A stretch of 64,000 nucleotides of DNA from Promethearchaeota archaeon. Lineage in GTDB: Archaea > Asgardarchaeota > Lokiarchaeia > Sigyniarchaeales > SOKP01. Of this stretch, positions 18,650-27,317 are shown in pieces. The notes under the pieces are model-generated. The model did no database searches. It was given only the letters and a program-made list of their open reading frames with translations, and was not told the DNA's origin. The stretch's first letter is position 1. Every line of letters begins with the position of its first letter. Made by a program: the position numbers and the translations under genes. The stretch is taken from positions 32,001 to 96,000 of the forward strand of contig JAHPZI010000002.1 of assembly GCA_019058295.1 (NCBI GenBank), in the 5' to 3' direction.

Positions 18650-19966
18650 ATGGATTATGAAGATTGGTTGAAAAGAAAGAGTTTAGAATATCGAAATGAT
18701 ATTCTTTATTTTGCTGAAGTCAATACTATTGAAATTGCTGAGAAGTTTGGCACTCCTATTTATGTTATTAACGAGCAAATGATTCGAAAAAAATATAAAA
18801 AATTAAAAAAAATGCTCGATTCGGCATATAAGAAAAATAGAATCTATTTTGCTATAAAATCTAACTCAAATTTATCAATTTTAAAAATTTTGAATTCAGA
18901 AGGCTCTTATTATGATTGTTCTTCAACTGGAGAGATTTATACTTGTTTTAAGGCAGGTATTGCTCCCGATAGGATAATTTATACAGGAAACATGTTTACT
19001 GATGCTGATTTTGAATTTGCTGTTAAAAATGATGTTTTAGTTAATTTAGATAGCATTAGTCAATTAAAACGATTAGTTAAGGCATATGATAAATTGGGAA
19101 AGGAAAAAGGAATTGTATCTTTCAGGATTAATCCAGAATTCGGAGCTGGTCACCATGTTCACACAATAACAGCAGGAAAAGAGTTAAAATTTGGAATATT
19201 AGATAACCAAGTTATTGAAGCATATTCAAAAGCCATTGATGAGGGAGGATTTAAAAAATTTGGCATTCACCAACACATAGGTTCAGGAATAATAAATCCA
19301 TATGATTTTGAAAAAGCAGCAGAAAAATTTTTATCAATAATAAAGAATTTAACGAGTACTTTAAATATAGATCTTGAATTTATAGATTTTGGGGGAGGGC
19401 TTGGAATTCCTTACCGTCCAGAAGAAGAACCACTTGATTTAAAAACATATAAAGAAGTTGTGATAACTAAATTTAAAGATTTAGTTGGAGAAGGAAATGT
19501 TGGAACCCCTTATCTAATTATTGAACCTGGACGATATATAACGGCTGAAGCAAGCATAATTTTAACTCAAATTAATACTATAAAAAATAATGGACATAAA
19601 TTGTTCGCAGGAGTCAATACTGGATTTAATACATTAATTAGGCCTACAATGTATGGTTCTTATCACCATATTATACTTTGCAATAAAAATTTACGAGAGA
19701 GAAGCTTAAAATATGATGTAACAGGACCTATTTGTGAATCAGGTGATATTCTTGGTAAGAATCGAGAATTACCAGAGTTAGTTGAGGGCGATTATCTTGC
19801 CATACTCGATGCAGGGGCATATGGTTTTACTATGAGTAGTGTATATAATTCACGCCCACGGCCTGCTGAAATCTTACTCAATGATGGTCTCACATACAAG
19901 ATTAGAAAAGAAGAAACTTACGATGACTTGCTAACCCATCAATTTATTCCAGATCATCTGATGTAA
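18650..19966 (+). CDS. lysA: Diaminopimelate decarboxylase
   Basis: FGTPIYV, FAIKSN (PLP lysine), HIGS, DFGGG, EPGRY, GPICESGD, GAYG. Confidence 0.96.
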   Translation: MDYEDWLKRKSLEYRNDILYFAEVNTIEIAEKFGTPIYVINEQMIRKKYKKLKKMLDSAYKKNRIYFAIKSNSNLSILKILNSEGSYYDCSSTGEIYTCFKAGIAPDRIIYTGNMFTDADFEFAVKNDVLVNLDSISQLKRLVKAYDKLGKEKGIVSFRINPEFGAGHHVHTITAGKELKFGILDNQVIEAYSKAIDEGGFKKFGIHQHIGSGIINPYDFEKAAEKFLSIIKNLTSTLNIDLEFIDFGGGLGIPYRPEEEPLDLKTYKEVVITKFKDLVGEGNVGTPYLIIEPGRYITAEASIILTQINTIKNNGHKLFAGVNTGFNTLIRPTMYGSYHHIILCNKNLRERSLKYDVTGPICESGDILGKNRELPELVEGDYLAILDAGAYGFTMSSVYNSRPRPAEILLNDGLTYKIRKEETYDDLLTHQFIPDHLM

Positions 19967-20077
19967 TCTCTCAATTACATACCAATCAAAATAAATAAAT
20001 ATTTTCTTTCTCATTCTTATATTAGATAAAATTATAAAAATACGATCGATTAAGGCTTGGATACCCTTTAATCGTTC

Positions 20078-20147
20078 AAAATGAAGATTAGGCGTAATGA
20101 AATCTGTTTATATACAGATTAATGAGAATACTGATCTGCCCTGAATA
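20078..20147 (+). ncRNA. Putative box C/D 2'-O-methylation guide sRNA
   Basis: C box ATGAAGA (20081), D' ATGA (20097), 7-bp hairpin AATCTGT/ACAGATT, C' ATGAGA (20122), guide ATACTGATCTGCC, D box CTGA (20141), then a T-run. TATA-like TTATAAAA at 20032. Ends approximate. Confidence 0.7.
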
Positions 20148-20199
20148 TTTTTTATAATTTTATCTTATTTTCTTTTTTAAAAAAAGTATAGTATGAAAT

Positions 20200-21021
20200 T
20201 TACAAATTTAAGACTTCACGCGTATTATATATCTTATTTTCTCTATCATCAGCAATAAATTTTATAGCAATTATAGCACCACTTGCGAAGCAGTTTCGAC
20301 TATGTGCTTGATGCTTAAATTCGATACGTTCGCCTGAACCTGCATATAAGATAATGTGATCACCCACAATATCTCCTGCCCGGATTGAATGAATTCCTAT
20401 TTCATTTTTAGCACCAATCTTTCGCTTATTAGGCCCTTTTGAACGTCCAAATTTCGCTACATCATCAATATTAACCCCAAGAGTTTCACTTATCATCTTA
20501 GCAGTAGTTAGAGCGGTACCACTAGGAGCATCAAGTTTCCTATGATGATGTGCTTCAATGATTTCAATATCCCAATCCTTCAAATATTCGGTCAGAACTG
20601 ACGCCATTTTGAAGAAAATATTAACTCCTGTTGCCATATTTGACGAAATAACGGCTGGTGCATTATATTCTTTTACTTTTTTTTCAAATTCTTCTATAAA
20701 TGAATTGGATAATCCAGTAGTTCCAATCACACATCGAATATTATTTTCTACACAAATCATGCAATTTTTTTCAGAAGCTTCTGCCAATGTAAAATCAACT
20801 GCTACCTCTGGTTTTGTCTCGTCAATTACCTCTTTAATTTCCGTAATATTCCTTATTTTTACATGATTCGGGTCCTTTTTGCCCACTAAAACTCCTAATT
20901 CATCACCTACATTCATTAAATCTAAAGCTGCGACAACATCAATATCCTCATCATCAAAAGCGTGTTGACTGATTAACGTACCCATTGAACCTGTTGGACC
21001 AAAAATTAATATTTTAATCAT
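20200..21021 (-). CDS. dapB: 4-hydroxy-tetrahydrodipicolinate reductase
   Basis: GPTGSMG, VDFT, IGTTG, EAHHHRKLDAPSGTA. Confidence 0.96.
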   Translation of the reverse strand: MIKILIFGPTGSMGTLISQHAFDDEDIDVVAALDLMNVGDELGVLVGKKDPNHVKIRNITEIKEVIDETKPEVAVDFTLAEASEKNCMICVENNIRCVIGTTGLSNSFIEEFEKKVKEYNAPAVISSNMATGVNIFFKMASVLTEYLKDWDIEIIEAHHHRKLDAPSGTALTTAKMISETLGVNIDDVAKFGRSKGPNKRKIGAKNEIGIHSIRAGDIVGDHIILYAGSGERIEFKHQAHSRNCFASGAIIAIKFIADDRENKIYNTREVLNL

Positions 21022-27215: not shown

Positions 27216-27317
27216 GGGAGGGTGGTCTAGCTTGGTATGATTCCTGGTTTGGGACTTCAAACAGAAAGCTTGGAGCAAAACACCAGGAGGCCGGGGGTTC
27301 GAATCCCCCCCCTCCCA
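27216..27317 (+). tRNA. tRNA-Pro(TGG) with 28-nt intron at canonical position 37/38; CCA not encoded
   Basis: Acceptor GGGAGGG/CCCTCCC, anticodon stem CCTGG/CCAGG, anticodon TGG at 27250-27252, T-arm GGGGG-TTCGAAT-CCCCC. Confidence 0.95.
27254..27281 (+). other. BHB intron of tRNA-Pro
   Basis: Central helix TTTG/CAAA, bulges GG^A and AC^A, intron stem CTTCAA/TTGGAG. Confidence 0.9.

Follow-up and report, generated by a model that had tools for sequence, protein, structure and literature searches.

A predicted box C/D guide RNA gene of Asgard archaea, located beside dapB, with 16S rRNA position 1197 as its probable target

Locus and question

What is encoded between the convergent genes lysA and dapB of an Asgard archaeon, and which nucleotide would the product address? 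The window, i.e., the whole stretch of 64,000 nt that was analysed (contig JAHPZI010000002.1, positions 32,001 to 96,000; all coordinates below are those of the window), belongs to a MAG of 3.2 Mb (79% complete). A preliminary description, made from the letters of this DNA, had placed an unannotated box C/D sRNA at 20078–20147 and proposed an Asgard source. Pfam annotation confirmed the convergent neighbours: lysA, 18650–19966 (+ strand); dapB, 20200–21021 (− strand); dapF and dapA lie beyond. The element is indeed unannotated: no Rfam family reached its gathering score and none stood above chance, the Rfam 15 cmscan at E up to 10 giving chance-level matches only (SNORD97, sR44). The source was borne out by the titles of contigs carrying the same element, Promethearchaeota or Promethearchaeia (Lokiarchaeia-type Asgard), isolate CR_4 among them. 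Elsewhere in the window, at 27216–27317 (+ strand), a tRNA match of 102 nt was obtained (Rfam, 52.5 bits); it is longer than a plain tRNA, and this tRNA therefore probably has an intron.

The reading preferred here, and held with good confidence on the strength of comparative sequence analysis, is that of a stand-alone box C/D guide RNA gene of about 145 nt with 16S G1197 (E. coli numbering) as its predicted target.

Features and occurrence

The features of the gene were assigned as follows:

19987..20000, + strand: likely promoter CAAAAUAAAUAAAU, A-rich BRE-like and TATA-like, 24–37 nt upstream of the helix start
20024..20040, + strand: predicted terminal helix, 5' strand AGAUAAAAUUAUAAAAA, 17 bp (RNAalifold, pair counts)
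20047..20074, + strand: predicted hairpin H1, 9-bp stem (20047–20055 with 20066–20074), 10-nt loop
20081..20087, + strand: box C, AUGAAGA (consensus RUGAUGA; position 5 is A)
20088..20096, + strand: D' spacer UUAGGCGUA, 9 nt; family consensus GUUGGC-R-W-W
20097..20100, + strand: box D'-like AUGA (AUGA in 49 of 54 copies, GA invariant)
20101..20120, + strand: predicted hairpin H2 between D' and C', 7-bp stem, 6-nt loop
20122..20128, + strand: box C'-like AUGAGAA (relatives mostly AUGAUAA)
20129..20140, + strand: D guide UACUGAUCUGCC, 12 nt; together with A20128 it pairs over 13 bp with 16S GGCAGGUCAGUAU
20141..20144, + strand: box D, CUGA (53 of 54 distinct copies)
20149..20165, + strand: predicted terminal helix, 3' strand UUUUUAUAAUUUUAUCU (RNAalifold, pair counts)
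20168..20178, + strand: T-rich run UUUUCUUUUUU, a possible archaeal terminator by its sequence

The block was matched by BLAST in the genomes of 16 relatives (71–91% identity), and covariance model R1 was built from the matched copies. A covariance-model search over Asgard genomes, as suggested in the preliminary description, was then positive in 105 of the 131 genomes of the host family (R1, one full-length copy each); neighbouring families of the order gave weak R1 matches only (one). R2, a core covariance model, was searched phylum-wide and gave three matches outside the host family, all marginal; one of them, in genome G156 of another Asgard family (C13:1745–1837, − strand), is a convincing compact sRNA of canonical layout with D guide UAUUGAUCUGCU followed by CUGA and, as D' guide, the 12-nt UUGGCGACGACA. 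Four neighbouring-family genomes and G016 lacked the exact guide-plus-box pattern. RNAs bearing H1 and H2 were found in the host order only, and the terminal arms only in the host family; armless copies with H1 and H2, lacking the 17-bp terminal helix, occur in CR_4, in one neighbouring-family genome (G039) and as second copies in genus g8.

In the host family the element is single-copy and syntenic: it nearly always adjoins the 3' end of dapB, convergent with it, and its upstream neighbour is usually lysA, sometimes dapF or another gene. Departures from this arrangement were seen in single genomes. In G150 (L043 27–167, − strand) and G109 (L035 1926–2056, + strand) a second, partial copy, with only the 3' half of the element (D', H2, C', guide, D, 3' arm), lies about 1.4 kb from the full copy; these are local duplications. 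In G058 (genus g8; L058 1128–1241 and 1501–1642) the full armed copy has a mutated D box, CUAA; 260 nt upstream of it is a second copy, armless, with canonical boxes (GAUGAUGA, CUGA) and a guide, CUUGAUCUGCU, that differs slightly. Function may have been handed over between these paralogues. In G018 (L028, contig start) the element is convergent with lysA, opposite to the arrangement in the window, which suggests inversion or rearrangement at the inverted arms.

Boxes, hairpins and covariation

The ordered C, D', hairpin, C' and D boxes of the preliminary description were recovered in place and proved to be conserved in relatives: box order and 12-nt D spacer are kept in 59 distinct copies. 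GA is invariant in each of the four boxes, of which D' and C' are otherwise degenerate. Box C is ATGA.GA throughout (AUGAAGA in 50, AUGAUGA in three and AUGAGGA in one of 54 parsed copies). The D spacer has 12 nt in 52 of 54 copies, in agreement with the archaeal rule of about 12 nt; the D' spacer, 9 nt in 53 of 54, is shorter.

Three helices (terminal helix, H1, H2) were evaluated by pair counts. Across 17 sequences, paired cells account for 94.6%, and both sides are changed in 16 of 30 pairs; none of 500 shuffles equalled these values, and sliding of the partners reduced the pairing to 36–55%. H1 and H2 behaved alike in 29 sequences of greater diversity: H1 stem, 7 of 9 pairs changed on both sides; H2, 6 of 6 counted pairs changed on both sides, 96.5% of cells paired. 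The terminal helix has 96.6% of cells paired and 7 of 16 pairs changed on both sides.

H2 starts directly after the GA of D', and its 3' strand is followed by a 3-nt step, RAU, and then by the GA of C'; by this layout H2 would be the canonical helix of an internal C'/D' kink-turn, in a fold that is predicted only. At the terminal motif boxes C and D have no short flanking stem; the 17-bp helix begins 4 nt after box D, and H1 stands just before the RAU-GA of box C, which gives a three-way arrangement with the terminal helix. An extension of H1 toward box C is present in many copies, with only 61% of it paired in the alignment.

The H1 loop GGAUACC (20059–20065) is invariant in 17 of 17 sequences and in nearly all of 59 copies. 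The apex of H1 as a whole, GGCUUGGAUACCC (20054–20067), resembles the 16S helix 24 '790 loop' GGAUUAGAUACCC of G016 (L004, about 744) at 11 of 13 positions in the same sense; this likeness may be due to chance.

D guide and its predicted target in 16S helix 34

Outside the boxes, no stretch of the RNA is as conserved as the core of the D guide, ACUGAUCUGC. The preliminary description had held the guide to be complementary to a conserved 16S segment, and this was verified on relatives, rRNA including 16S not being found in the 79% complete MAG of the window itself. In the relatives, which include 16 host-family genomes and one genome of the same genus, 16S reads GGCAGGUCAGUAUGCC throughout, and the guide of the window pairs with it over 13 bp with one G-U; the 16S of one more distant genome reads GGUAGG. 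In 11 genomes holding both gene and 16S, the guide pairs with its own 16S over 11–12 bp. Complements longer than 10 nt, the length on which the proposal had been staked, are thus present in relatives (11–13 bp).

C20136, the fifth nucleotide upstream of box D (N+5), faces the first G of CAGG in a C-G pair. Alignment of a family 16S with E. coli rrsH places this G at position 1197, in the 3' strand of helix 34; the G-U wobble adjoins the N+5 pair. Guide position 9 is mismatched in four genomes. Guide-target covariation is absent, as the target is invariant; the significance of the pairing was assessed with shuffled guides. Free use of G-U allowed 9% of them to find an 11-bp site in 16S plus 23S; with at most one G-U over 12 bp, 134 of 50000 (0.27%) matched.

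In the minimum-energy fold, AGAUUAG (20085–20091; end of box C and D' spacer) pairs with CUGAUCU of the guide (20131–20137). This predicted pairing could mask the guide in naked RNA; in relatives it is only partly conserved, as judged by eye.

According to the preliminary description, the N+5 target appeared equivalent to human Gm1490 and yeast Gm1428. Published tables equate yeast Gm1428 (snR56, helix 34), human Gm1490 (U25/SNORD25), Arabidopsis Gm1431, Dictyostelium Gm1506 (CD1) and the site of Plasmodium PFS10 (PMC2794176, PMC8817022, PMC2656528, PMC13507652). For Dictyostelium the guide of CD1, 5'-AACAGACCUGAU followed by CUGA, is drawn paired with rRNA 5'-AACAGGUCUGUG (PMC8817022 supplement), and Gm1506 is equated with yeast Gm1428/snR56 and human Gm1490/U25 (PMC8817022). 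The N+5 nucleotide of CD1 is the first G of CAGG, homologous to the predicted target of the Asgard RNA and in the same register; this pairing diagram together with the 16S alignment confirms the equivalence.

D' spacer and H1 loop

For the D' spacer the preliminary description had named no target. All 16S genes of the relatives read GCAUGGCCGUCGCCAGUUCG in the 5' strand of helix 34 (E. coli 1053–1072), i.e., on the strand opposite the D target. The D' guide of UUGGCGAC type in the neighbouring-family copy would pair over 8 bp with this strand and place N+5 at G1064. The D' guide of G156 begins with the same UUGGCGAC and may therefore target the same strand, the match being by guide start only. 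In the host family 4–7 bp are left (4 in the window copy), and positions 1–3 of the spacer drift among copies. The D' spacer is probably a decayed guide, left over from a second one that in an ancestor addressed the 5' strand of helix 34. No consistent 23S site was found for it, and no tRNA target.

Three candidate D' pairings were discarded. The 5' end of 23S (ACGCCAAU) matched at 6–8 of 9 positions in three of four genomes and not at all in the fourth; GUUGCCAGC (E. coli 1124–1131) fitted well, the motif not being found in most family 16S genes; a perfect 12-mer match of the D' guide of G156 is no better than expected by chance, and the stretch around it appears to be coding and matches nothing in Rfam. 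The 23S genes of family relatives (L129, L131, L128, L126) have 3.3–3.5 kb vs 2987 positions of the archaeal model, as would be expected if these Asgard archaea had large expansion segments.

With GGAUACC the H1 loop is exactly Watson-Crick complementary to GGUAUCC at 16S positions 1081–1087 (E. coli). This site comes 12 nt after the 5' strand of helix 34 and is present in all family 16S genes examined. Complements of 9–10 nt to this loop were looked for in rRNA and none was found, the 16S 7-mer being the only match. Among shuffled 7-mers 6.3% had a Watson-Crick site anywhere in 16S and 0.8% had one within 60 nt of a guide target, in a test run post hoc, after the match had been seen. The H1 loop precedes the D' spacer on the RNA and the D' site precedes the H1 site on 16S; these opposite orders are what antiparallel pairing at both sites at once requires.

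With up to three separate complementarities in one rRNA neighbourhood, the RNA might instead bind 16S helices 34–36 mainly as a folding or assembly chaperone, its boxes serving RNP assembly only. Such a role was proposed by Dennis et al. for dual guides with structurally close targets (PMC4644070), and the G-U wobble beside N+5 and the shortness of the 9-nt D' spacer would suit it. The combination of a canonical 12-nt D spacer with a Watson-Crick N+5 pair in 52 of 54 copies speaks for methylation, as does the identical register of guides in Pyrobaculum and in eukaryotes, where the site is methylated. The two roles are compatible; chaperoning as the main function is judged unlikely.

Extent of the gene, likely promoter and terminal helix

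Conservation in relatives spans about 20024 to 20165, and by this measure the gene is larger (about 145 nt) than the 20078–20147 first given; the parts described inside the shorter interval stand, its ends do not. The TATA-like box AAAUUAUAAAAA that had been noted just upstream turned out to be the 5' strand of the terminal helix. A promoter in this arm was considered and rejected: in the RNA this arm is paired with the 3' arm, and transcription from a TATA box at this place would begin inside H1. The likely promoter is instead at 19987–20000. When 54 distinct copies were aligned on the helix start, positions −37 to −31 were 60–95% A and positions −29 to −25 read T-A-A-A-A; the position matrix of the same copies has a pyrimidine-purine step at the predicted transcription start. 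The block at −37 to −24 fits an archaeal BRE/TATA promoter, and from its spacing only we infer a start at the first base of the helix. T-runs occur both within the 3' arm and beyond it. No bulge-helix-bulge processing site was seen by eye at the base of the helix.

Arm differences in relatives are compensated or G-U (11 G-U cells on the + strand vs 2 when read as − strand), and both arms are therefore assigned to a + strand RNA. The same counts weigh against a structured intergenic element with no guide role, acting as a two-way terminator or insulator and bearing box-like words by chance in AT-rich DNA. Its convergent-gene setting in most genomes, T/A-rich arms resembling archaeal termination and TATA signals, and a minus strand that folds nearly as well (z −5.1 vs −4.7) would be natural for such an element. 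For a spacer, however, the interior is over-conserved (GA pairs, 12-nt spacer, guide, H1 loop); the armless versions retain the core, the G-U wobbles favour one strand, and the promoter-like block is kept at a fixed distance. The terminator reading is accordingly rated very improbable.

The perfect 17-nt terminal inverted repeats could also belong to a miniature mobile element that carries sRNA-like sequence by chance; MITE-like sRNA elements were reported in Pyrobaculum (PMC6009581), and the partial duplicates in G150 and G109 and the copy inverted relative to lysA in G018 would be in line with mobility. The genome has the arm motif once on each strand and contains no second arm pair, which disfavours a repeated cassette or MITE; each genome has a single copy of the element, in syntenic position, and arm differences are compensated or G-U, as an RNA helix predicts. 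Hardly any weight is left for this origin. As little is given to a cis-regulatory RNA of the surrounding lysine (diaminopimelate) pathway genes, for which the linkage to dapB, dapA, lysA and dapF across genera would speak: the element lies at the 3' ends of both neighbours and not in a leader, its upstream gene varies, no Rfam riboswitch matched, and the armless copies in g8, CR_4 and G039 were found by the RNA model alone, neighbours aside.

Partner proteins and proposed mechanism

L7Ae is encoded in the MAG of the window. Nop5 was not found in this MAG (79% complete), but 23 of 24 family relatives have it, as do 8 of 9 genomes within the genus; its absence is best explained by incompleteness. 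For fibrillarin the only match in the MAG was weak (29 bits).

The guide RNA reading would imply the following course. Transcription would start about 27 nt past the BRE/TATA-like block, at the base that opens the A-U-rich terminal helix of 17 bp. By analogy with archaeal sRNPs, L7Ae would bind two kink-turns, the internal C'/D' one closed by H2 and the terminal C/D one closed by the three-way arrangement of H1 and terminal helix; Nop5 and fibrillarin would then assemble on the L7Ae-bound kink-turns. The D spacer, paired with the 3' strand of helix 34, would set the first G of CAGG (1197) at N+5 for 2'-O-methylation. Pairing of the H1 loop with GGUAUCC may serve as an accessory contact helping the RNP to hold the region, and the D' spacer would be what remains of the ancestral second guide for the 5' strand.

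A farther-reading version is put forward only tentatively, as a possibility with the odds against it: an enlarged, eukaryote-like RNA may grip helices 34–36 of nascent 16S by up to three antisense elements (H1 loop, vestigial D' spacer and D guide), so coupling methylation of the G with folding of the 3' major domain, H1 and H2 each being the canonical helix of a kink-turn. If true, this would be an archaeal example of the accessory pairing and internal stems typical of eukaryotic snoRNAs.

Significance

The predicted target nucleotide is methylated in yeast, human, plant, amoeba and Plasmodium according to published tables (PMC2794176, PMC8817022, PMC2656528, PMC13507652); the guide for it is shared by the Asgard gene and by Pyrobaculum sR32 (see below), and one rRNA methylation site can thus be traced across archaea and eukaryotes. 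No box C/D guide RNA described for Asgard archaea was found in the literature searched or in Rfam, and the present family is apparently the first guide RNA of its type to be defined in the group: a gene defined by covariance model in more than 100 genomes, with a predicted target at a decoding-centre nucleotide. Hairpin-closed kink-turns, a long terminal helix, an rRNA-complementary loop and a decayed guide, all as predicted here, are unusual for archaea and resemble eukaryotic snoRNAs. The family offers a system for asking how compact archaeal guides became elaborated.

Comparison with known systems

k-Junction: A k-junction is a kink-turn built into a three-way junction. The terminal motif is similar in that its terminal helix joins on the box D strand, the one without the bulge, and H1 adjoins the 3-nt step that leads to the GA of box C; it differs in being a secondary-structure reading, with an H1 extension that is 61% paired.

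Compact sRNA of G156: The D guide is in the same register, and the D' guide begins with UUGGCG like the host-family consensus; but G156 has two 12-nt spacers, a 3-nt D'-C' loop and a 3-bp terminal stem, and lacks H1, H2 and arms. On the tentative version given above, its compact form may show where the enlarged RNA started from.

Pyrobaculum sR32: This RNA of P. calidifontis, defined by RNA-seq, has D spacer UACUGACCUGCG (Dennis et al. supplement, PMC4644070). Box order is the same and the 12-nt D spacers are nearly identical (UACUGACCUGCG vs UACUGAUCUGCC) in the same register, so that sR32 predicts the same 16S nucleotide. sR32 has about 50 nt, a short D'-C' loop and no extra hairpins, whereas the Asgard RNA has a core of about 110 nt, H1, H2, a 9-nt D' spacer and, in the host family, the 17-bp terminal helix. 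Since Pyrobaculum carries the guide, the site is pan-archaeal and not Asgard-specific; its presence in both sR32 and G156 makes the guide look ancient and widespread.

SNORD25/snR56 group: SNORD25 (U25), snR56, Arabidopsis snoR19, CD1 and PFS10 select, in the same register, the homologous nucleotide, which is the first G of CAGGUC in helix 34. The guide of Dictyostelium CD1 is upstream of D', that of the Asgard RNA upstream of D, and beyond the guide there is no detectable sequence or covariance-model similarity between the group and the Asgard RNA. This lack of similarity and the Pyrobaculum guide weaken any special tie to SNORD25. The suggestion of an Asgard counterpart of a eukaryotic snoRNA is hence retained in the sense of a functional analogue with the same predicted nucleotide; as to kinship, no Rfam snoRNA matched and sR32 shares the guide. 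On sequence grounds, shared descent with SNORD25-type snoRNAs and convergence on a conserved target are indistinguishable.

snoRNAs with accessory pairing: In eukaryotic snoRNAs accessory rRNA complementarity, sometimes in a stem loop, stimulates methylation (van Nues et al. 2011, PMC3116282), and snR56 is listed there among yeast snoRNAs with 'extra base-pairing' (PMC3116282). The Asgard RNA is like them in having a conserved rRNA-complementary sequence outside the guide, near the predicted methylation site, and like snR70 in having it in a stem loop. It differs in where the two partners stand: the accessory element is 5' of box C, and its complement in rRNA is close to the opposite strand of helix 34, about 110 nt in sequence from the predicted methylated nucleotide.
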